DNA from: a virus | Lineage: Duplodnaviria; Heunggongvirae; Uroviricota; Caudoviricetes | Virus record (IMG/VR): IMGVR_UViG_643348545_000009 | Coordinates: 1 to 53,655 of that record | DNA length: 53,655 nucleotides | Direction: 5' to 3' (one strand) | In this document: piece by piece, positions 832-52,017 of the stretch | How positions within the stretch are numbered: the first letter of the stretch is position 1 | How the letters are laid out: each line of letters begins with the position of its first letter | Made by a program: the position numbers and the translations under genes | Notes under the pieces: model-generated | What the model was told of the DNA's origin: nothing | Seen by the model: the letters and a program-made list of their open reading frames with translations, nothing else | The model's database searches: none

Positions 832-2016
832 TTAAAACTCGAAGTTCACACCAACGTTCCAGGAGGCATCGCCATCACTGAATGCCACGCCTGCTTTCGC
901 TGCGGTCTGCTCGTTGAAGCGGTAACCCACACCCACCGCCAGTGCCTGCTGGTCGCTGTAACCACCAACCGCTGCCGTGGCGTTGAATTTACCCACACTG
1001 TACGGCTGGAACAGACCTGTCAGGGCCGCAGACTGTGCTGCTGCACGCTTCATTTCCTTGTGGTTTTCATTAATCTGGCGCTGCTGGCTGTCCAGACGTG
1101 CTGAATGTTGCTGCAGCGTACGGGTATTGGCTGCAATCGCCTTGCTGTTTTTCTCAATGGATTGCGTGTTACGGGTGACACGGCCATCAATGGCACCAAC
1201 TGCTGCATCAATACGGTCAGTACGACCAGACAGGGCCACCAGACCATCGTTAACAGAAATGGTGTTCTTTGCACCTTCTGCACGGGTCAGGGTGCCATCA
1301 GAACTCACACCAACCAGTGTGCGGGATTCGACTTTTGCAGCTGTTGCAGCAGCCGCAGCATCAATCTTGTCGGTACGCGTGGTCAGTTTACCAAGATTTT
1401 GCTTCTGCGCTTCAAGCTCGCCTTTCTGAGCATCAAGCTCATTCGCAACAATGGTGGAGTGGGCGGCCTCCCCTGCCAGATAGCGCTGTAAAGACATGTG
1501 TTCTTCTATTTCACTCGGATCTGCTGCCACATTTCCATACTTATCCAGGCCGACGTTGGTTTTCATCTGCTGGATTGCTGAAACGCGGTTGTACAGGTCA
1601 CGGATATTCTGTTCTGTCAGAAAAACTCCATCATTCTTACGCGCCAACAGTTTATCTTTCCCTGATGCCGCAGTCTTCATAAAATCATGAAGCTCTTTAT
1701 CATAAACAGTAAATGTTGTCGAACCATCCGCAGAGGTAATTGTAACATTACCATTGACATCTATTTTACTTAGCGCCTGAATCGTTTCCCCCCTCTGCGA
1801 TGCTATACTTCCGTCCTGCCCCCATTTTATATAAGCCGTTTTTGTAGCACCATCAAAATATATCCCATACATAGAACCTGAATTACCGTTTTCCGTTTTT
1901 AGCGCAGAATAATCCCCCGTAGCATCCTGTGTATCCTGTGCAAACGATACACAAGGAACAAACAGCGCTGAAAAAACTGCCGCAGACAAAACAGCCTTTG
2001 TAAACTTCTTGCTCAT
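832..2016 (-). CDS. Trimeric autotransporter adhesin with YadA-like C-terminal anchor; Eib-like (immunoglobulin-binding protein) prophage cargo candidate
   Basis: 394-aa ORF; signal peptide [26 protein letters not shown]; long coiled-coil stalk; C-terminus ...[33 protein letters not shown] typical of YadA/Eib beta-barrel anchors; lies just outside the tail fibre genes. Confidence 0.7.
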
Positions 2017-11017: not shown

Positions 11018-11079
11018 GTCAATATTTCCTAATCCGATTTGTTGATACCGAAGCCCTGACTGTTACAGCAGTTGGGGCT

Positions 11080-11220
11080 TCAACTTTTTAGGCTGCGAAT
11101 AAGACGCTGCACTATTTCTGAATTTAAAGACCTGCCCTCCTCCTTAGCCTTTTCCTTCAATTTTTCTTTAATCTCTGGCGGGATACGAATCCCTAATGGA
11201 GCGATATCTCTAACTTTCAT
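11080..11220 (-). CDS. arc: Arc-like ribbon-helix-helix repressor
   Basis: 46-aa product MKVRDIAPLGIRIPPEIKEKLKEKAKEEGRSLNSEIVQRLIRSLKS resembles P22 Arc (…NGRSVNSEIYQRV…); internal ATG at 11218-11220 chosen over the longer ORF. Confidence 0.7.
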   Translation of the reverse strand: MKVRDIAPLGIRIPPEIKEKLKEKAKEEGRSLNSEIVQRLIRSLKS

Positions 11221-36119: not shown

Positions 36120-38108
36120 TTATGATGATGCCCGGCTTTCGTTAACTTTGACTGTGACCGTATCAAGCAGTACAGGATACGTCGCTTTTGCCCCCGTGAT
36201 ATCTGTCAGCGTCAGCGTATCTGCTGTAAAGCCATCATTTGTCCACATCACAAGGTCAAACGCCGTCTGCTCTGTACCATCAATTACCGGAACGACTCTT
36301 TCGCTGTTATTTCCCGCAAAGCGGAAAACAACCGTATGCCAGTTATGGTCAAACGCACCAAATGTACCCAGTTGTGCATTCGACGTGCCCTTGTGGTGCA
36401 TAAGATTCAGATTTGATGCATCCGTCTGAAGGAAGAATGATGCCAGCATACTGTTTGCTGCCGCGCCTGACGCCCACTGCGACACCGGCCAGTAGAGACC
36501 AAAGACAAACTGTCCGTTCACCAGTTCGCTTCCATCCGGAATTTTGAACCGTACGGCAATTTCACCCCCCTTGCTGAGAAGATTTTTTGCCTCCTCCACT
36601 GCAACAGTACGGAACATTTTCCAGGACGTCAGTTTACCGGGCTGTTTTTCCAGTCGTAGCGCTTTCCGTCCACCGTCATCAGTCACAGTGCCTTTGCCAC
36701 CGGCAGCCCCCCACTGCTGCTCTGTCCATACACCATTTCCACTGTTCGCATCATATTCAGCCACCGTCCTGGTACTGCTCACGGCCTCATCATGACCAGT
36801 ACCAGCAACACCGCCATCCTGCGGTTTCTCAACACCCGGTACCCCCGGACTGACATCATCACCGGGAGTTGTACCACCCAACTGCGGTGCGCTCTGCCCG
36901 GTAAGGAACGATAATGTCCGCCCGGCGTACTGCAAAATGGCACCTGCCAGGCGGTCTGAAACAATGCCTCTTCGCGCCCATGAACTGAAGTGCGTTTTAC
37001 GATCGGCTGACGTCCAGTTACTGGCAGTGCGTGACGCAGCACCATAGTATCCCGCCGGGATAATGTCCGGATCTTCTGACGGCTCGTTTGTCGGCACATT
37101 CACACCATGCTCATCCGTCATCAACGGCACAAAGAAGATTTTTTTTGCGGATTTCGTCTTGTATGCACCATACACCGCATCGTATTGCGAAGAATAAGTC
37201 TGCTTCCAGTAGTAGGTCGTGTCGCCACAAATCCAGGGAACCGATGACGGAGAGCCCCCGAGACACTGACCTCCGAATTCCGACAGGTCAGAACGATATT
37301 TTTCCACCATGGAATCAAACAGCCCCGGCTGAGTGGCGTATGCACCCTGTTTCAAATCAAACTCGCCCTGCATCCAGACCACTGCAAGCAGAATATTTTT
37401 AGGGTTAGCCTTCAGTGCGGCCTGAGTACGGGTAAGCAGGTCCTTGTACAGTGGCTTATCTACACCCCAGCGTGCCGAGGTCTCGCTTGCGCCGGTGGAT
37501 TCGCTGAAAGTACCTTCATCGCCCTCCAAAAATGCAGAACCACCACGGCAGCACGGAACCAGAAGAATACCGGCATTCGCCGGAATAAACGGCAGCAGTT
37601 TTTTGGCGATATGCAGCCCCTGCCCCACGGTTCCGTACTGCCCCTTTGACAAGTCCGCTTTCGGATGGTTAAGACGGCTCATGTCCTGTACATCATGCAG
37701 ACAATGGTCCGCCGGAATGATGTCGTTATATTTACAGGCGACACCACCCGGTGTCACCGTACTGCGACGCGCCAGTTGCTTAATGCGCGGGTCCGGACGG
37801 TCATATGTCTCCGGCAGCGGCAGCCCTTCACCAAAAGACATTGAGTTTGACTGCCCCGCCAGAACAACAACAAAGTAATACTCCGGTTCGCTGGTGGTGC
37901 TGATAACTGTGCCTTCTCCATCCGACGGCTTCACCACCACAGGTGTGGTGACATCACCTTCCGCCGCAATGGCCTGCATCAGGGTATAAGGCGTGATGGC
38001 GACAGGGCTGCCAAATGGCTGCCACCCCTCCTTCAGTTTTTGTGTCAGTCGCTCCGCAAGGTCTGACGGCGACGCCGCCCTGACCACATCGTAGTGTTTA
38101 AATGTCAT
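36120..38108 (-). CDS. nanS-p: Prophage-encoded sialate O-acetylesterase-like protein (NanS-p-like; DUF1737 N-terminus plus SGNH-type esterase)
   Basis: 662 aa; N-terminal MTFKHYDVVRAASPSDLAERLTQKLKEGWQPFGSPVAI… DUF1737-like; …VVLAGQSNSM… SGNH-like motif; position between Q and lysis genes as in Stx-type phages; GGGAGG upstream of ATG. Confidence 0.8.
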   Translation of the reverse strand: MTFKHYDVVRAASPSDLAERLTQKLKEGWQPFGSPVAITPYTLMQAIAAEGDVTTPVVVKPSDGEGTVISTTSEPEYYFVVVLAGQSNSMSFGEGLPLPETYDRPDPRIKQLARRSTVTPGGVACKYNDIIPADHCLHDVQDMSRLNHPKADLSKGQYGTVGQGLHIAKKLLPFIPANAGILLVPCCRGGSAFLEGDEGTFSESTGASETSARWGVDKPLYKDLLTRTQAALKANPKNILLAVVWMQGEFDLKQGAYATQPGLFDSMVEKYRSDLSEFGGQCLGGSPSSVPWICGDTTYYWKQTYSSQYDAVYGAYKTKSAKKIFFVPLMTDEHGVNVPTNEPSEDPDIIPAGYYGAASRTASNWTSADRKTHFSSWARRGIVSDRLAGAILQYAGRTLSFLTGQSAPQLGGTTPGDDVSPGVPGVEKPQDGGVAGTGHDEAVSSTRTVAEYDANSGNGVWTEQQWGAAGGKGTVTDDGGRKALRLEKQPGKLTSWKMFRTVAVEEAKNLLSKGGEIAVRFKIPDGSELVNGQFVFGLYWPVSQWASGAAANSMLASFFLQTDASNLNLMHHKGTSNAQLGTFGAFDHNWHTVVFRFAGNNSERVVPVIDGTEQTAFDLVMWTNDGFTADTLTLTDITGAKATYPVLLDTVTVKVNESRASS

Positions 38109-38235: not shown

Positions 38236-38290
38236 TTATGAATTCTGGTTAAAATCCATTCGATTATAAAAATGTATATCTCATGCTGTT

Positions 38291-38316
38291 GCCCGAACCC
38301 ACTCGGGCTTTTTTTT
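38291..38316 (+). terminator. Plus-strand intrinsic terminator-like hairpin
   Basis: GCCCGA-ACCCACT-CGGGC followed by T8. Confidence 0.4.
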
Positions 38317-38326
38317 GCCCACAAGA

Positions 38327-38556
38327 AAGCCCCTCCGGAGAGGGGCTAAAGCCGCGTATCTGTATCATCATGCACATGGTGCCGGGTGCCTCCCGGTGAG
38401 TTCAGCCCGGTGCCACTAAACCCGCGTCATTCTCGTTTTGATAATCAGAGATTATACCGTCACCAGTCGCCCCTCCGCTCAGGGGGATTCACCATGCGAA
38501 ATTTTTTTAACAAATGCCCAGTCTGACAGGCAACTGTCAACTTACTGAATTGTGAG
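38327..38556. repeat. Copy A of a ~230-bp hairpin-rich element
   Basis: Shares with copy B: AAAGCCCCTCCGGAGAGGGGCT, ATGCCGGGTGCCTCCCGGTGAGTTCAG, CCCCTCCGC.CAGGGGGATTCACCATGC, TTTTAACAAA, CAGTCAAC, CTGAATTGTGAG, in the same order. Confidence 0.6.
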
Positions 38557-38812
38557 CAACATAGCATTTAACGGGGAACCTGTTTTCTGCAGTAAAAAGG
38601 CCCACCGGAGCGGATGGGCCTGGAAGGATAGCGGTCATGTGATGCCGGTTTCCCGGTAACTCAGCACCGGTATCTGAGTCAACGTTTTCTCTACTGGGTC
38701 ATTTCCGATACGCCCTGCCTGCTGACAGGCTTTCATCACATCTGAAAATATAGCACCCTGACTGATACTGTAGTACCTAAGGTTCCAGAAACTGTGATGT
38801 ATCCGGCACAGA

Positions 38813-39803: not shown

Positions 39804-40487
39804 CTATTTTGCAAGATATGGTTCTAAATTAAGCGACTTTTTCCGTGAACGTACCCGCATTACTGAAATAAGAGCATCCCTGTCCAGCATCTCTGCACTA
39901 CCCCGCATAGCCAACCAGTGAGGCCTGTGTGTTTTTGTCCATGTAGATTTAGCAACTCCTATGAACAGCGCTAACTCCTGATGTTCATAGGTCTCACGCC
40001 CTGCCAGCTCACTCTTCACATCCTGTGCCGCCAGCCAAATCAGTTTCTTCAGACGATCCAGCGTTTTCCCTGCAATTTTTCTGGTACCAGCCTGAGCTTT
40101 AAACTCACCCCATACCCATTGTGTTATAGTGACCTGATCTTCCCAGCAAACATTTCCACTGTAGCACCACAGTAACCACGCCTTCTGATGTTCTTCCAGT
40201 TCCAGAACGGCACGCCGCCACGATGATGTTGCAAACTCAACCGGTCTGACCAGCGCAATTGATGAGCCTTTCGCCAGTGATTGTTTACCCGGGATCGGTG
40301 GATTATCCCGCGTGATCATTTTTCCGGTTACCTCATCGCGATAACGAATTTTTTTGCGTCTGTAACGCCCTGTATCGAACAGGGCATTCTCCTGCCAGGC
40401 TTCCAGCTGGCCTTTTGTCGCCCCACTGAGATCCGCAGTGGCAATCATGAGTTGCTCACGAACAAACTGTAAATACTGGTTATTCAT
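39804..40487 (-). CDS. Q: Late-gene antiterminator Q
   Basis: 227 aa from ATG 40487 (overlaps rusA stop, ATGA); Q-family pattern and position upstream of the late region. Confidence 0.75.
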   Translation of the reverse strand: MNNQYLQFVREQLMIATADLSGATKGQLEAWQENALFDTGRYRRKKIRYRDEVTGKMITRDNPPIPGKQSLAKGSSIALVRPVEFATSSWRRAVLELEEHQKAWLLWCYSGNVCWEDQVTITQWVWGEFKAQAGTRKIAGKTLDRLKKLIWLAAQDVKSELAGRETYEHQELALFIGVAKSTWTKTHRPHWLAMRGSAEMLDRDALISVMRVRSRKKSLNLEPYLAK

Positions 40488-40843
40488 GCGCACTCCAGTT
40501 CTGTGATTTTTATCCCCAGCCGCCCGCCAGGAACAGGCAGGCCACGCACAATATTGATTTCATCAAACTGCTCATCGTCCATTAACAACCCCGCGTGCGT
40601 CAGCGCATCCAGCGGTGCTTTCAGAATATTGTCCAGGTCACGACGACGCTTATCCGGTGGCTCTGCAATAATTTTTATTGCCAGCCGTCCGGACAGGCTT
40701 AATTTCAGTCGCTGCTGGCGAACAATAAGCGACACTGCCCGGCGATAACGCTCCCCGGCTTTTGATACAAAATATGTGCTGCCACGGCGTCGCCAGTAAG
40801 TGTTCACCGTCGGCGGGTAAGGTAAAACCAAATCTATGAGCAT
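40484..40843 (-). CDS. rusA: Holliday junction resolvase RusA
   Basis: 119 aa MLIDLVLPYPPTVNTYWRRRG… with conserved RusA motifs (…DLDNILKAPLDAL…). Confidence 0.9.
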   Translation of the reverse strand: MLIDLVLPYPPTVNTYWRRRGSTYFVSKAGERYRRAVSLIVRQQRLKLSLSGRLAIKIIAEPPDKRRRDLDNILKAPLDALTHAGLLMDDEQFDEINIVRGLPVPGGRLGIKITELECA

Positions 40844-42352: not shown

Positions 42353-42508
42353 TTACTCCTCAGGTTCGTAAGCTGTGAAGACAGCGACCTCCGTCTGGCC
42401 GGTTCGGATTCGTACCTCGCAGAGGTCTTTCCTCGTTACCAGTGCCGTCACAATGACGGTAATACAGATGACGATCAGGGCGACTAACATCGCCTTTTGC
42501 TGCTTCAT
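42353..42508 (-). CDS. hok: Hok/Gef family type I toxin (HokD/RelF-like)
   Basis: 51 aa MKQQKAMLVALIVICITVIVTALVTRKDLCEVRIRTGQTEVAVFTAYEPEE, near-identical to recalled HokD. Confidence 0.9.
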   Translation of the reverse strand: MKQQKAMLVALIVICITVIVTALVTRKDLCEVRIRTGQTEVAVFTAYEPEE

Positions 42509-42744
42509 AGCCTGCTTCTCCTTGCCTTTCGGCGTGTAAGAGGCTAACCTACATGTGACTAGCATGAAATTGGCCTCAGATTAATGTTAAGCGTCCTGCA
42601 AGACGCATAATGTTAACTGGGGCTTTTCTCTATCTGCCGTTGGTGTTCATGCCCGAGGCAGATAGCCTCAAGCACCCGCAGCAATTCTACTTAACTCACG
42701 TCACCTCGCCAATATGAAATCAATCAGAAAGGTGATCCATAAAA

Positions 42745-46317: not shown

Positions 46318-46743
46318 TCAATGCACGACAACAGCATTACCAGGCTGACCACCACTGTTAGTCAGGGTGCCCCAGGCGATCGCCGCTGCGACAAAATCAT
46401 CCACATCTTTCACCAGCCGATCCCTCCGTTCGACGATCTCACGGTAATATTCAGAGCTGTGACTGCGCATACGGGCCACCAGCAGAGGCGGCATTGCCTT
46501 TTCGATCGCCGGTAACAGAGCCTGAATTTTTTCAACAGCATCAGGGGTGTCTTTATCCAGCCAGCGGAAAATTTTCTGGGTATTACGGGCCAGGGCTTCC
46601 GGATGGCTGTCGTCGTACAGTTCCGGGAACGTCATTCCCAGCTCGAAATACGCTTTGGTAATTTTCGCAGCCGGTACTTTTTCGCCGTCCGGATGCGCCC
46701 AGACATTCATCGCCATGCGGATGTGTTCATGCTTGATTTTCAT
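46318..46743 (-). CDS. YdaT-like protein (cII-position gene of Rac-type early operon)
   Basis: 141 aa beginning MKIKHEHI…, as I recall for YdaT-family proteins; AGGAG upstream. Confidence 0.55.
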   Translation of the reverse strand: MKIKHEHIRMAMNVWAHPDGEKVPAAKITKAYFELGMTFPELYDDSHPEALARNTQKIFRWLDKDTPDAVEKIQALLPAIEKAMPPLLVARMRSHSSEYYREIVERRDRLVKDVDDFVAAAIAWGTLTNSGGQPGNAVVVH

Positions 46744-47008
46744 GAATCAAGCTCCTAGAAAGTGGTTGTGTTAACGTTTTGGTATCTTCCAGCTCGGGCC
46801 AAATATTCATCCAATCAAAAGGCCTTAGTTGCTGACGTGTAACTTCACCATTACTGGCTCGCTCAATAAGGACACATAACGATGCCCCTAACACTTGACC
46901 TTTACTCAATGCTTTTCTTAGATAACCGATGCTGGTACCACACTCGCATGCAAACATACGCTGTTCATCTGACGAAAGAGAATTGAGAAATATTCTTAAT
47001 TCTTCCAT
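46727..47008 (-). CDS. Cro-like repressor (YdaS/DicC-position HTH protein)
   Basis: 93 aa; …GYLRKALSKGQVLGASLCVLIERASNGEVTRQQLRPFDWMNIWPELE… YdaS-type pattern; AAGGAG upstream of ATG 47008; divergent from repressor. Confidence 0.7.
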   Translation of the reverse strand: MEELRIFLNSLSSDEQRMFACECGTSIGYLRKALSKGQVLGASLCVLIERASNGEVTRQQLRPFDWMNIWPELEDTKTLTQPLSRSLIHENQA

Positions 47009-47112
47009 AGCTACTCCTTAGTAAACACAGCAAAGAATACCCACAGGTAAACAAAAGTCAATACCCACAGGTTGTTTACCTTGCGGTAATTGCATCTATT
47101 ATTTACCTATGG
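47009..47112. promoter_or_regulatory. Divergent immunity promoter/operator region
   Basis: TACCCACAGGTA at 47038-47049, TACCCACAGGTT at 47062-47073, and the inverted form TACCTATGG at 47104-47112 overlapping the repressor ATG. Confidence 0.5.
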
Positions 47113-47528
47113 ACAAATATGAATTTAGACGACAGCAACTCATCAAAATTCGTGATGAGAAATGCGATGGTAAAGCGGTTAACGTGGCCAGAAAGATCGG
47201 GCGCGAGCCTTCTTATGTATCAAGAATGTTGTACCCAGAGGGGAAAAAGGGAAAAAAACGGATCGCTGATGATATGGTGGAGATTATCGAAGAGTCCTTT
47301 GGGTTACCCCGGGGATGGATGGATGGTATCGTTTCATCATCAACGAACACAGCCTCCAGTTATGAAACAAGGGTTCTAACGCCACGACAACGTATTTTTT
47401 TAGATCTCTTAGACGAACTGCCAGAAAGTGAAGCGGATAAATTATTAAAAACTCTTGAAGAGAAAAAACAGTATTACAATATGATCTACGAAGAAATCCG
47501 TAAAAAGAAAGCACAAAACGCATCATAG
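47109..47528 (+). CDS. Prophage repressor, DicA/RacR-like HTH (no S24 peptidase domain)
   Basis: 139 aa; HTH KAVNVARKIGREPSYVSRML; C-terminal …LTPRQRIFLDLLDELPESEADKLL… resembles DicA (…LSPKELELLELFNALPESEQD…). Confidence 0.8.
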   Translation: MDKYEFRRQQLIKIRDEKCDGKAVNVARKIGREPSYVSRMLYPEGKKGKKRIADDMVEIIEESFGLPRGWMDGIVSSSTNTASSYETRVLTPRQRIFLDLLDELPESEADKLLKTLEEKKQYYNMIYEEIRKKKAQNAS

Positions 47529-47571
47529 CTCACCAAACAACTAGTCACCAGTTAAGACACCGCAAAAATTT

Positions 47572-47618
47572 ACCCATAGGTATTTACTTTTTAAATACCT
47601 ATGGGTATCCTTCTTTTC
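47572..47618 (+). terminator. Intrinsic terminator after repressor gene; stem carries operator-like motif
   Basis: Perfect 15-bp inverted repeat ACCCATAGGTATTTA / TAAATACCTATGGGT with 5-nt loop, followed by T-rich tract. Confidence 0.55.
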
Positions 47619-47945: not shown

Positions 47946-48043
47946 TGAAGGTTAGTAATTAAAGAGTTCTCCACAGGCGAAGTGGAATACGTTCGCCGGA
48001 CACGGGTAAGCATTCGGCATGCTCTTTAACAATCTGGGTATTC

Positions 48044-48490
48044 CTAACCACAAAGGAATCGCATCAATTTGGATTTTGCAGACAGTTTCTCTTGTTGTTC
48101 TACGGAGATTCCTATTTTGATCTGGGTTTTTAAGATTGCGATATCTTTAAGCGACGACCAAATATTATCATCTGTTTTTTCCAGGAGCTTTAACTGCATT
48201 TTCAATTCCGAATCGGAATATTTTTCTGCATCATCATAAAGCTGCAGATATTCTGCGGATTTTCTCATTGCGTTACCTGACTTTTGTCCGAATCCGTAAA
48301 TCGTTTGAACGGTTGCTATCACAACAATGAGAACTCCAGAAACTTCAGGAATAAATCCACCAATGACAGATGAACCGAGGATAATACTCACCACTGAGAA
48401 AAGTTTATCGAGACGACCAGTCGCTACAGAGAATAGTTGTTCAAGAAAATAACCATATAAAACCCTGTCAAGAATATCATCCCGGTCCAT
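48044..48490 (-). CDS. Two-transmembrane protein with C-terminal coiled coil (SLATT-like or SieB-like topology)
   Basis: 148 aa; hydrophobic helices LFSVVSIILGSSVIGGFI and VSGVLIVVIATVQTIYGF then helical K/E-rich tail; opposite strand to the surrounding dicA-dicB operon. Confidence 0.5.
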   Translation of the reverse strand: MDRDDILDRVLYGYFLEQLFSVATGRLDKLFSVVSIILGSSVIGGFIPEVSGVLIVVIATVQTIYGFGQKSGNAMRKSAEYLQLYDDAEKYSDSELKMQLKLLEKTDDNIWSSLKDIAILKTQIKIGISVEQQEKLSAKSKLMRFLCG

Positions 48491-48496
48491 ATATCA

Positions 48497-48757
48497 TCAC
48501 CTGCTTGTTTGATTGTTGCTGTTCCCCCTCTCCTCTGAAGGAGCTGGAGATGGTTTTGGTCGAATGTTTTTCTCAGGTATATGTTTCCTGGTATTCGGAA
48601 TGTCCGCCCTGTCCGCAGGCTTACCAGTACCTGAACAATTCTTTTGAACCACCATATAAAACACCTTCCTGTTGTTGGGGATATCCAGATTATACAGATT
48701 TCCTGTTATTGGGGAATGACGGAAACCACCTCGCCTGACGTGGTTAAAAGCAGGCAC
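48497..48757 (-). CDS. Hypothetical basic protein (weak gene model)
   Basis: 86-aa ORF ending 7 nt upstream of the 148-aa gene start; GTG start; competes with an overlapping plus-strand Cys-rich ORF. Confidence 0.15.
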   Translation of the reverse strand: MPAFNHVRRGGFRHSPITGNLYNLDIPNNRKVFYMVVQKNCSGTGKPADRADIPNTRKHIPEKNIRPKPSPAPSEERGNSNNQTSR

Positions 48758-48952
48758 ACAACACGAAAGCGCACGGCGAGATTCCTTTGCATATAAGGCT
48801 TGTCGTTAAATTTCTTCGACCGTGCACTTCCGGTTGTGGCACTCCGCGAAATGGCGCGGCGGTAAGTATGGCTGGGGTTTCCTCCATTGCTCCAGAAAAT
48901 GCACCGGGTTGTCAGGTTGACCATACGCTTAAGTGACAGCCCCGCCACAATA

Positions 48953-49010
48953 CCCATGCGTAGTCTTTGGTGGCATCAGTTCTACTCCGTGACTGCTCTG
49001 CCACCCTTTT
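48953..49010 (+). ncRNA. dicF: DicF-like small RNA with terminator
   Basis: …TTTGGTGGCATCAGTTCTACTCCGTGACTGCTCTGCCACCCTTTTT closely matches recalled E. coli DicF (…TTTGGCGGTATCAGTTTTACTCCGTGACTGCTCTGCCGCCC); lies just upstream of dicB. Confidence 0.6.
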
Positions 49011-49193
49011 TAAAGTGAATTTTGTGATGCGGTGAATGCGGCTATGCGCACGCGGAACAGTTAAAACCGTAAAGTGGTCTTTTACGGGGCGTAACGGGCA
49101 TCCTTCTGTATTCCGGCGTTAATTGTTAACTGGTTAACGTCACCTGGAGGCACCAGGCACTGCATCACAAAATTCATTGTTGAGGACGCGATA

Positions 49194-49382
49194 ATGGAAA
49201 CGTTATTACCAAACGTTAATACGTCTGAAGGTTGTTTTGATATTGGTGTTCTGCTCAGTAACCGGGAGTTTACGGAAGATGCCATTAAGATGAGAAAATA
49301 TGAACCTTATCTTCTCAATGATAATTCCATACTTTCCAGAATTGCCCTTCTTGAACTTGGTATTATCGGAGAACAGCAGTGA
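49194..49382 (+). CDS. dicB: Cell division inhibitor DicB
   Basis: 62 aa METLLPNVNTSEGCFDIGV…TEDAIKMRK… matches recalled DicB N-terminal half (MKTLLPNVNTSEGCFEIGV…TEDAINKRK…). Confidence 0.8.
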   Translation: METLLPNVNTSEGCFDIGVLLSNREFTEDAIKMRKYEPYLLNDNSILSRIALLELGIIGEQQ

Positions 49383-49567
49383 CTTCAGCGTTTGCACTGA
49401 TAATGACCGTTTTTCTTATAACGGGTGAGCCGCAGAATGTGATTACCGGAATTTATGACAGTAAGTCATCCTGCATTCAGGTAAGGGACGAACAAAAAAT
49501 CCCCGGTGAATGCCTCCCGTTAAAAAAAGTATCGCTGTACCTGAATAACGAAACACCGGCTGGATAA
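49379..49567 (+). CDS. ydfD: YdfD-like small membrane protein
   Basis: 62 aa with N-terminal TM (MTSAFALIMTVFLITGEP…) and …EQKIPG.C.P… resembling YdfD; GTG start overlaps dicB stop (GTGA). Confidence 0.55.
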   Translation: MTSAFALIMTVFLITGEPQNVITGIYDSKSSCIQVRDEQKIPGECLPLKKVSLYLNNETPAG

Positions 49568-49659: not shown

Positions 49660-52017
49660 ATGAACGCTGATAAAGAAGAAATTGCACTATATTACGAAGC
49701 CAAAAATGACAAAGTCAGAAAACGCCTTGGGATTAAAGGTGGTTTTTACTGGCGCACAGCAAAAAAATTATCGGTTGCAATATCACGCGGTGTTGCTGCA
49801 ATGGACGATGCCGGATTTGACGAAGAGGATTTTAAAAAACCCATCCGCGTCCATTTACCCGTTGTGAATGACCTTCCACCGGAAGGTGTGTTTGATACTG
49901 AATTCTGCAACCGATACGAAAAAGGCGGAGAAGATGGTATCACAATGATATTTATAGCGCCCTCCCCCTCAGTTCAGGACAAACCAGCCAGCACTGACAA
50001 TACCAACGTCAATGGCGAAGACATGGCTGAGATTGAGGATAATATGCTCCTGCCGATTTCCGGTCAGGAACTGCCCATTCGCTGGCTTGCGCAACATGGC
50101 AGCGAAAAACCGGTAACGCACGTTTCACGAGAAGAACTTCAGGCATTACATATCGCACGAGCTGAAGAACTACCGGCTGTTACTGGCCTGGCTATTTCCC
50201 ACAACACAAAGCTGCTCGACCCGCTGGAGATTCGCGACCTTCACAAATTGGTACGCGACACTGACAAAGTTTTCCCTAATCCCGTTAATTCCAGTCTGGG
50301 GTTCATGACTGCTTTTTTCGAAGCATACCTGGACACTGACTATACCGATCGAGGTCTGCTGACAAAAGAGTGGATGAAAGGAAATCGTGTTTCTCGCATC
50401 ACCCGCACGGCTTCCGGTGCAAATGCCGGTGGCGGAAATAAAACCGATCGTAATCCTGACTTAGTACACACCCTCGATACTCTGGATGTGGAGGCTGCAG
50501 CAGCCACGCTTCCGATGGATTTTAATATTTATGAAATTCCCGGGAGCGTTTATCGTCGCGCAAAAGAAATCGTCCTGAAAAAAGAAAGTCCGTTCAGGGA
50601 ATGGTCCGCAGCACTTCGCGCAACCCCTGGTATCCTGGACTATTCCCGCGCAGCTATTTTTGCACTTATCCGAAGCGCCCACCCTGAGTTTTATCACTAC
50701 CCGGGGCGCCTTCAGGGGTATATCAATGCCAACCTGACAGAAACTGATCACGAGAATCCCACAGCTGAAACGCTCATGGCTGCCCGGCATACACCGGAAA
50801 AAGATATCCTGGAAGAAATTAACGGCGGACTGGCTGCTGAGTGCAAAACAGAAGAAGAAAAAAATGATGAAGATAACCCGCAGCCGCTGGATGACAAGTC
50901 ACAGGTAAAAGTTACCGCTGACGAAGTAAACAAAATTATGCAGGCAGCCAATATCAGCCAGCCTGACGCCGATAAGTTGCTTGCTGCCTCTCGCGGAGAA
51001 TTTGTTGCAGGGATTAGCGACCCGAATGATCCGAAATGGGTAAAGGGGATTGAAACCCGCGATTCTGTAAACCAGAACCAGCAAGAATCGGAACAGAACG
51101 ACCAGAAAGCGGAACAAAACAGCCCAAATGCGTTACAAAACGAGCCAGAAACGAAACAACCTGAACCAGTAGTGCAACAAGAACCGGAAAAGATCTGCAC
51201 CGCCTGCGGTCAGACCGGCGGCGGCAACTGCCCTGATTGTGGCGCGGTGATGGGCGACGCAACATACCAGGAAACATTCGATGAAGAGAATCAGGTTGAA
51301 GTTCAGGAAAATGATCCGAAGGAAATGGAAGGCGCTGAACATCCACACAAGGAGAATGCTGGCAGCGCTCAGGATCACGCCAGCGATAGTGAAACTGGCG
51401 AGACGGCAGATCCCTTAATTACGGTGAACGGTCATCACGTTATCACATCCACCAGCAGGTTGTGGCACCATCTGATGATTGACCTTGAAACAATGGGCAA
51501 AAATCCTGATGCCCCGATTATCTCAATAGATGCAATATTTTTCGATCCGCAAACCGGAGATATGGGACCGGAATTTAGTAAGACTATCGATCTGGAAACT
51601 GCTGGCGGAGTCATTGATCGTGACGTCATTAAAAGGTGGCTGAAGCAATCACGTGAAGCGCAGTCTGCCATTATGACCGATGAAATCCCGTTAGATGATG
51701 CACTGTTACAATTGCGGGAATTTATCGACGAAAACTCCGGTGAATTTTTTGTTCAGGTCTGGGGAAATGGAGCCAACTTCGAAAACACGATTTTGCGCCG
51801 TTCATACGAACGGCAGGGGATCCCCTGCCCGTGGCGTTACTACAACGATCGCGATGTACGCACAATCGTTGAGCTGGGGAAAGCCATAGACTTCGATGCC
51901 AGAACTGCTACCCCATTCGAAGGTGAGCGCCATAATGCACTTGATGACGCCCGTTATCAGGCAAAATACGTTTCAGCTATCTGGCAAAAACTGATCCCGA
52001 GTCAGGCTGATTTTTAA
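49660..52017 (+). CDS. Large exonuclease-like protein (YdfE/ExoVIII-position) with C-terminal DEDD-type 3'-5' exonuclease domain
   Basis: 785 aa; acidic Q/E-rich linker, zinc-ribbon-like [17 protein letters not shown]-terminal …[11 protein letters not shown]…DAIFFD…WGNGANFE…[11 protein letters not shown]… DnaQ-like motifs. Confidence 0.7.

Follow-up and report, generated by a model that had tools for sequence, protein, structure and literature searches.

The virus record IMGVR_UViG_643348545_000009 of IMG/VR (53,655 nucleotides (nt), analysed over its whole length and called the window hereafter) exhibits, near its 3' end, a module made of the small RNA (sRNA) DicF, the cell-division inhibitor gene dicB and a ydfD-like gene. 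We regard this module, with a probability of about 0.8, as a host-takeover segment of the type found in dicBF of the Qin prophage of Escherichia coli K-12. Its DicF belongs to a second allelic type ("type II") that would keep the targets of the DicF loop without the control of xylR. Described simply as a prophage cell-division-inhibition cassette, as it first was, the module is known and ordinary. DicF is usually taken as one sequence, yet about 4% of complete E. coli genomes hold a different 5' seed, and the type II allele offers a ready natural experiment on the rewiring of a two-seed sRNA. The intergenic regions of dicF-dicB and of kilS-kilR in the Rac prophage exhibit, moreover, the same covariation-supported fold, related to the RNA STnc100. 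The features of the module are the following (aa, amino acids).

48756..48841, plus strand: long hairpin upstream of DicF, a fold shared by the K-12 and window precursors
48955..49011, plus strand: DicF sRNA, type II allele, whose 5' tail is KilS-like (CAUGCGUAGUCUUU) and whose DicF hairpin, with the loop that pairs with ftsZ, pykA and manX, is followed by a U-tail
49014..49178, plus strand: structured RNA leader of five helices, located after the DicF terminator and ahead of the ribosome-binding site of dicB, and related by homology to the STnc100 core
49194..49382, plus strand: dicB, 62-aa cell-division inhibition protein with the 'YEPYLLNDNS...' C-terminal allele (Pfam, NCBIfam)
49379..49567, plus strand: ydfD-like DUF1482 gene, 62 aa with a hydrophobic N-terminus (Pfam PF07358, PHROG 1092)

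A second type of DicF

The Rfam DicF model (RF00039) matches the window at 48955..49006 on the plus strand over its entire length (model positions 1-52 of 52) with 58.9 bits (E-value = 1.9e-10 for the whole window), above the gathering score of 48 bits. Aligned with K-12 DicF, the sequence differs at 14 of 58 positions, ten of which are within the first 12 nt. The initial annotation, which had described a DicF with a changed 5' end, is thus confirmed. The other four differences correspond to a compensatory stem pair (C-G to U-A), a change of U.G to C-G and a loop change of U to C. The hairpin retains the K-12 fold at nearly the same free energy (-15.8 kcal/mol in the window vs -15.9 in K-12) and is followed by UUUUU. 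Across 19 variants, 98.7% of cells are paired, with one compensatory pair. A simple terminator scan did not flag the DicF hairpin (loop >8 nt), and no promoter was flagged upstream of dicF or dicB.

Type II is characterized by five constant features: the new tail, the loss of 14 nt, and the C-G to U-A, U.G to C-G and loop U to C changes. The deleted segment (TCTGTTATCAATTT) is AU-rich, lies directly upstream of the K-12 5' end and holds the RNase E cut. In K-12, a 53-nt DicF species requires RNase E and a 190-nt species requires RNase III (PMC10448788). Judging from the sequence, the mature 5' end of type II DicF may differ from that of K-12, and another cleavage site is conceivable. The long upstream hairpin is conserved at a level of 0.9-0.99 over 111 unique loci. 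When the fold is compared with the published ends, the 5' end of the 190-nt K-12 species, 137 nt upstream of the 53-nt 5' end, maps to the 3' arm of this hairpin (PMC10448788). By analogy, we infer that RNase III would cut at the upstream hairpin of the window as well.

Among 120 IMG/VR loci retrieved by a DicF-core pattern, type I (the K-12 tail, UUUCUGGUGACGUUU) is dominant and type II occurs in five. These five loci represent three subvariants (AUGCGUAGUC, AUGUGUAGUC and AUGUGUAGUA), all of which possess the compensatory C-G to U-A stem pair. With a 73-nt type II-specific query (full coverage, at least 95% identity), the allele was identified in 205 of 5426 complete E. coli genomes. E. coli EC2 exhibits a 100% match to this query and an identical DicF, and G1/2 has a type II subvariant; carriers of type I include the O157 PPompW phages, O103:H2 strain 12009 and phage Tritos. 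In GTDB species representatives, a 17-base DicF core matched 51 loci, most of them by chance and in unrelated phyla. Seven are DicF-like, all of type I, and come from Escherichia or Shigella records and from three metagenome bins labelled otherwise. Type II DicF was absent from the species representatives in this 17-base core scan, which says little beyond that.

The survey of DicF published in 2016 was restricted to copies more than 99% identical (PMC5069750). Apart from K-12, the RefSeq genomes inspected carry no non-coding RNA annotation at the DicF position, be it of type I or II, so that DicF copies and alleles escape routine annotation. Melson and Kendall are said to have described, in 2019, four dicF copies in enterohaemorrhagic E. 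coli.

Predicted pairing with DicF targets

Compensatory mutagenesis demonstrated that DicF uses its loop/3' region to pair with pykA and the ribosome-binding site of ftsZ, and its 5' end to pair with xylR (+8..+21) (Balasubramanian et al. 2016, PMC5069750). Segment-restricted duplex predictions at the published target sites gave the following energies.

ftsZ (-29..+1): K-12 DicF -27.9 kcal/mol, window DicF -21.3 kcal/mol
pykA: K-12 DicF -22.3 kcal/mol, window DicF -21.4 kcal/mol
manX: K-12 DicF -33.9 kcal/mol, window DicF -29.9 kcal/mol
xylR: K-12 DicF -16.7 kcal/mol, window DicF none at the site (best elsewhere -9.1 kcal/mol)

The loop/3' part is almost unchanged and the pairing at the xylR site is predicted to be lost, which indicates that the 5' divergence bears on xylR-type targets and not on ftsZ. 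It had been suggested in the initial annotation that the divergence of the 5' end could change target specificity, with ftsZ mRNA as the example. The general part of this suggestion stands, in that pairing with xylR is predicted to be lost, but the choice of ftsZ is not supported, as ftsZ pairs with the loop/3' part (PMC5069750). On the basis of these models, type II DicF should keep ftsZ, pykA and manX as targets and should lose the control of xylR.

Two other kinds of prediction were discarded. Unrestricted duplexes between the whole DicF and 140-nt targets were long and uninformative, and were superseded by the segment-restricted ones. In the minimum-energy fold, the Shine-Dalgarno sequence and AUG of dicB were paired with the type II tail (-11.9 kcal/mol); 9% of shuffles did as well, and this pairing is probably due to chance.

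KilS and the probable origin of the 5' tail

KilS (b4833) is an annotated 98-nt sRNA of the K-12 Rac prophage, located upstream of kilR (b1352). It was discovered by RNA interaction by ligation and sequencing (RIL-seq) with yncL as its partner, and possibly has its own promoter (PMC8175672). In an alignment of Qin, Rac, Rac-SA53 and the window, KilS stands at the position of DicF, and its tail (...UGUGUGUAGUC(C/U)UGGCGGCAUCAG) matches the type II tail (AUG(C/U)GUAGUCUUUGGUGGCAUCAG). The type II segment UG(C/U)GUAGUCUU agrees with UGUGUAGUCUU of KilS/Rac-SA53 at 10-11 of 11 positions, against 2 of 10 for K-12 DicF. Compared with the KilS segment UGUGUAGUC(C/U)U, it likewise has the tail of KilS, but the window possesses neither the KilS loop nor a location upstream of kilR, exhibiting instead the DicF loop with dicB downstream. 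The loop of KilS (UUUUUUCUUGAAGUUCGG) bears no relation to that with which DicF pairs with ftsZ. The Rac-SA53 copy scores 41.1 bits with the Rfam DicF model, below the gathering score. On either side of the type II tail, the sequence is Qin-like. As far as the alignment goes, type II looks like a DicF into which a short KilS-type patch (about 25 nt) has been introduced, although an intermediate lineage could also account for it. Sequences related to dicF are reported, by Faubladier and Bouche in 1994, to exist in other prophages, Rac included.

The kilS-kilR segments of Rac, Rac-SA53 and Shigella phage 75/02 Stx share the plan of the window: a terminator-ended sRNA, the same leader and a small division inhibitor, with an exonuclease gene at some distance behind them. 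The cargo is KilR in these segments and DicB in the window. A pairing between KilS and yncL was also considered, in which UGUGUGUAGU forms a 10-bp (base pair) match to the yncL 5' untranslated region; the 16-nt tail is not distinctive relative to shuffles, and this pairing was retained as a lead only. The window tail exhibits a C:A mismatch at the same match. No paper naming both KilS and DicF was found in a literature search that did not cover Melson and Kendall 2019, Faubladier and Bouche 1994 or Conter et al. 1996.

A structured leader between dicF and dicB

The spacer between dicF and dicB exhibits a closing helix of 21 contiguous bp (49014-49034 with 49158-49178), which begins 3 nt past the DicF U-tail and stops 5 nt short of the dicB Shine-Dalgarno sequence. 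RNAalifold on 19 diverse leaders gave five helices with 33 pairs, 13 of which show compensatory double changes. Counted pair by pair, 98.7% of cells are paired; none of 500 shuffles equalled the real alignment in any of five measures, and 0-2 compensatory pairs were obtained with slid controls. Of 130 loci, at least 117 are predicted to form a helix of 21 bp or longer, a Klebsiella copy among them. In this copy, the closing helix (22 bp) and a hairpin of 8 bp have the same geometry with an entirely different sequence. The non-coding blocks 49012-49071 and 49117-49193 show 95-100% conservation over the 111 unique loci. This conservation extends about 14 codons into dicB (to 49236) and exceeds that of the rest of the dicB/ydfD coding sequence. 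We found no earlier description of the leader fold in the literature searched.

An open reading frame (ORF) of 67 aa on the minus strand (49082..49285), antisense to the leader and to the dicB N-terminus, roughly overlaps the most conserved block. The conservation across it is probably due to the RNA structure.

The leader occurs in front of genes other than dicB. It is located about 20 nt upstream of kilR in Rac-type phages, and a Klebsiella phage has it at a like distance from small ORFs that are followed by a lambda-Kil-like gene. In the P1-like phages P7 and D6 (at about 1431..1564) it follows tRNA genes and directly precedes, again by about 20 nt, a terB/tciA-like gene, called 'tellurite or colicin resistance or inhibition of cell division by homology' in the D6 record; the closing helix predicted in these two phages is much shorter (5-8 bp). 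The sRNA heads (DicF-I, DicF-II, KilS or none) and the cargo genes assort independently around the leader, the cargo being one of two DicB alleles, a divergent DicB, KilR, a TerB-like protein or a small membrane peptide. This fits a cassette of three parts, and it also fits a recombination joint. An IMG/VR locus, a metagenome-assembled genome in GTDB and phage Evi possess type I DicF and the leader followed by kilR instead of dicB, and three further loci carry a divergent DicB (MEKLSCNASTSE...). Such combinations indicate that the head sRNA and the division inhibitor are swapped independently of each other. Given its length and position, the closing helix would be an RNase III site, at which the cargo mRNA is cut away from the sRNA and receives its 5' end.

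Relation of the leader to STnc100

The Rfam model of STnc100 (RF02076, gathering score 47) gives sub-threshold scores on all leaders (32-44 bits): 32.4 bits in the window, 34.4 in K-12 and 32.9-43.8 in the others. For the reciprocal search, a covariance model (R1) was built from leaders only, without STnc100 sequences. R1 scores 146.6 bits on the window leader. It also detects, end to end and in the same fold, both STnc100 loci of the window with 62.9 and 49.7 bits (E-values = 1.4e-16 and 9.9e-13). These two loci are the following.

38317-38526, minus strand: STnc100, first of two tandem copies, Rfam 165.5 bits
38804-39009, minus strand: STnc100, second tandem copy, Rfam 138.1 bits

This detection in both directions indicates that the leader and the STnc100 core are homologous, the terminator being absent from the leader. 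Shared between the STnc100/PasD family and the leader are the closing helix, the GUGAAU junction, the hairpins, and among them the CC(U/G)GG-AGGCA-CC(A/C)GG hairpin (UUGUUAACUGG loop). The leader differs by the absence of the STnc100 3' terminator, running instead into the dicB ribosome-binding site. The locations also differ: leaders are found in the early-left operon (in P7 and D6, in the tRNA region), whereas STnc100 precedes an esterase gene in the late region. Three prophage RNAs that were named separately, the DicF/KilS leaders, STnc100 and PasD, are hereby joined into one lineage. The leader fold is a candidate control for the processing of the read-through transcript and for the translation of toxic small proteins.

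Near the STnc100 copies, an AsxR match lies at 38261-38313 (plus strand) exactly at its gathering score, and a third, weak R1 match (15.8 bits) is found between the copies at 38629-38749 (minus strand). The cluster is flanked by a 229-aa ORF (39804-40493, minus strand) and by a 662-aa esterase-like ORF (36120-38108, minus strand).

A bolder interpretation joins two linked ideas: that type II DicF is a natural seed-swap chimera, and that the leader is a functional RNA of the STnc100 lineage. By the former, the 5' seed of KilS would have been placed on the hairpin and loop of DicF, and KilS-type targets (the yncL link) would have replaced xylR, with ftsZ, pykA and manX retained. By the latter, the helix of about 21 bp would, as an RNase III site, free the sRNA and set both the 5' end and the translation of whichever cargo follows (DicB, KilR, TerB-like or others). 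We put the two forward jointly as a tentative proposal, more doubtful than probable. If it were true, prophages would assemble division-inhibition cassettes from sRNA head, leader and toxin as exchangeable parts.

DicB and the YdfD-like protein

DicB matches Pfam PF05358 (129.5 bits, cut-off 27) and NCBIfam NF049927 (111 bits, cut-off 100) over its full 62 aa. It is identical to K-12 DicB at 38 of 62 positions (61%), with 26 of 34 in the N-terminal and 12 of 28 in the C-terminal part. The exact sequence corresponds to RefSeq WP_000449172.1, annotated as DicB in O103:H2 strain 12009, EC2 and G1/2, and occurs on at least 1000 contigs. The diverged allele is therefore not a novelty, being already in RefSeq. 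About 100 IMG/VR loci exhibit two major C-terminal alleles of DicB, K-12-like and 'YEPYLLNDNS...', the latter co-occurring with both types of DicF. K-12 DicB binds MinC, blocks the formation of the Z-ring and inhibits ManYZ (PMC6832061).

The YdfD-like protein matches Pfam PF07358 (DUF1482) with 52.8 bits (cut-off 25), its residues 4-61 being aligned with profile positions 1-57. Its GTG start overlaps the dicB TGA as GTGA, where K-12 has ATGA; closely related copies of the same subtype start with ATG, GTG being a variant. Both proteins are thus as initially annotated: a DicB homologue with a diverged C-terminus, and a GTG-started YdfD-like gene coupled to dicB. All parts named in the initial annotation lie at the coordinates given there, and none is a match due to chance. 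The exact YdfD-like sequence is present on 262 contigs under the name 'DUF1482 family protein'. K-12 YdfD binds and inhibits IspG and causes lysis, and lysis is abolished in its deltaC1 and L63A mutants (PMC8835842). Leu63 is missing from the window protein and needed in K-12, so that lytic activity of the YdfD-like protein cannot be assumed. Neither DicB nor the YdfD-like protein matches a PADLOC defence model.

Gene order and comparison with other prophages

The prophage is a lambdoid mosaic, and the module lies in its early-left (pL-type) operon, in the order repressor, ydfA-like gene, dicF, dicB, ydfD-like gene, exonuclease, xis and int. The repressor, the ydfA-like gene (DUF1391), dicF and dicB are all on one strand. 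The neighbouring genes are the following.

46318-46743, minus strand: divergent YdaT-like gene (Pfam YdaT)
46727-47008, minus strand: divergent Cro/YdaS-like gene (Pfam YdaS)
47109..47528, plus strand: prophage repressor gene, upstream of the operon (PHROG 5736 'transcriptional regulator', 234 bits)
48044..48490, minus strand: 148-aa gene between the ydfA-like gene and dicF, within a 728-bp insert (48018..48745) without counterpart in K-12 Qin (BLAST)
49660..52017, plus strand: 785-aa exonuclease with Exonuc_VIII and Rv2179c-like 3'-5' exoribonuclease domains (Pfam)

In K-12 Qin, the dicBF segment (dicF b1574, dicB b1575, ydfD b1576) has the same order as the window: sRNA, a leader of about 170-190 nt, dicB, an overlapping ydfD-type gene, an exonuclease gene and int. 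The regulatory layout is also the same, dicC/dicA being followed by dicBp (K-12 sequence; PMC10448788). BLAST of the window against Qin revealed homology at five places: the ydfA region (91%), 48746 to 49305 (82%), int (93%), a short piece after ydfC and one piece after ydfD. Homologous elements are the ydfA region, the upstream hairpin, the DicF hairpin and loop, the leader and the dicB N-terminus. The window differs from Qin by the absence of ydfB and ydfC, by the 728-bp insert, and by an intact exonuclease, xis and int; the 785-aa exonuclease is the intact counterpart of the ydfE remnant of K-12. Downstream of it, an ORF of the size of xis is followed by an integrase gene that reaches the end of the window. 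In the matching annotated loci, the exonuclease is followed by excisionase, integrase and ompW.

Prophages adjacent to ompW (EC2, G1/2, O103:H2 12009 and the O157 PPompW phages) exhibit the same local order and a DicB identical to that of the window. The annotated prophages of EC2 and G1/2 have the gene order of the window and adjoin ompW. Among complete E. coli genomes, the 1-kb module region has no 100% match (best 97.7%), and none covers more than 66% of the surrounding 25 kb. Lacking a full-length relative among these genomes, the element is a new mosaic of known modules.

The exact sequence of the 148-aa protein occurs on 722 contigs, one UniRef name being 'SLATT domain-containing protein'. 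It matches PHROG 6315, a group of unknown function, and gave zero matches in Pfam, NCBIfam and PADLOC searches. The gene looks like an accessory gene, antisense to the early-left transcript. A perfect 16-bp inverted repeat with a 5-nt loop (TACCCATAGGTATTTA ... TAAATACCTATGGGTA; 47571..47607) is found between the repressor and the ydfA-like genes. It was flagged on both strands by the terminator scan and could be an operator or a terminator.

Proposed function and alternative explanations

By analogy with K-12 DicA/dicBp, the prophage repressor would hold the operon off in a lysogen. Derepression would lead to a polycistronic transcript covering the ydfA-like gene, the upstream hairpin of the RNase III type and DicF, and most transcripts would stop at the DicF hairpin and U-tail to yield an Hfq-type sRNA. 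The loop of this sRNA would pair with the ftsZ ribosome-binding site, pykA and manX, with less FtsZ synthesis and a division block as the expected result. In type II, the tail would have been exchanged for that of the Rac sRNA KilS, the AU-rich RNase E region being gone. Read-through would carry transcription past the folded leader into dicB, the coupled ydfD-like gene and the genes for recombination, excision and integration. DicB would then recruit MinC to the septum and block ManYZ-dependent phage entry. The ydfD-like product may act as its K-12 homologue, which inhibits IspG and causes lysis.

Several points weigh against reading the module as a functional Qin-type segment with type II DicF. 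The window DicF scores 18 bits below K-12 dicF in the same Rfam search (58.9 vs 76.7), and the RNase E site for the 53-nt K-12 species is deleted, so that the tail may not start the mature sRNA. The predicted ftsZ pairing is mildly weakened by the loop U to C and stem G to A changes. DicB differs from K-12 at 16 of its last 28 residues (43% identity over residues 35-62), and the YdfD-like protein is only 44% identical to K-12 YdfD (27/62), ending in ...ETPAG without Leu63 where K-12 YdfD ends in ...IPAGL. The opposite-strand gene between the promoter region and dicF could disturb transcription. Finally, the analysis shows identities, gene order, RNA structures, allele frequencies and in silico pairings, and expression, processing and phenotypes are inferred from K-12 work and these pairings.

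The cassette might serve the lysogen mainly for anti-phage exclusion through DicB and ManYZ, rather than for a division block at induction. K-12 DicB confers about 100-fold resistance to lambda via ManYZ and MinC (PMC6832061), and the immunity-proximal position of the cassette, next to an opposite-strand accessory gene, would suit such a role. However, the operon is repressed in lysogens save a subpopulation (PMC10448788), the DicB allele of the window diverges from K-12 in its C-terminal half, and PADLOC defence models match neither DicB, the YdfD-like protein nor the 148-aa neighbour. We consider exclusion as the principal role to be rather improbable.

Alternatively, type II dicF could be a drifting relic, acting as a terminator only and yielding no discrete tailed sRNA, its likeness to KilS reflecting a common ancestry of the Qin and Rac left operons. 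Such an ancestry is plausible, since the Qin-type and Rac-type regions can be aligned over their whole length. The absence of the 14-nt AU-rich stretch with the K-12 RNase E cut, the fall of the Rfam score from 76.7 to 58.9 bits, the rarity of the allele (about 4% of genomes) and the presence in the window tail of a C at a position occupied by U in KilS and in the remaining subvariants of type II all point the same way. On the other hand, the hairpin has been kept by a compensatory change on both sides together with U.G to C-G, and the loop is identical except for one base. The allele is present in 205 complete genomes as several subvariants with different downstream cargo, and a KilS-like patch of about 25 nt within Qin-like flanks argues for the exchange of a patch rather than for general drift. 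A relic is thus an unlikely explanation, more so than an exclusion role.

It is very improbable that the dicF-dicB spacer is conserved at the DNA level only, as a recombination linker or mosaic joint between lambdoid modules: such a joint would let heads and cargo genes assort independently on either side and could explain a leader more conserved than the adjacent coding sequence, but it leaves unexplained the both-sided changes at 13 of 33 pairs (0/500 shuffles; 0-2 in slid controls), the same geometry in the Klebsiella copy of different sequence (22-bp helix, 8-bp hairpin) and the detection by R1 of both STnc100 loci in the same fold, and the roles as DNA joint and as RNA are in any case compatible.

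Other RNAs in the window

Two further RNAs were identified by Rfam. A P22-type sar antisense RNA is located at 11019..11085 (plus strand, 69.4 bits), and a sok antitoxin RNA at 42503..42677 (minus strand, 113.2 bits), the latter suggesting a hok/sok-type locus.

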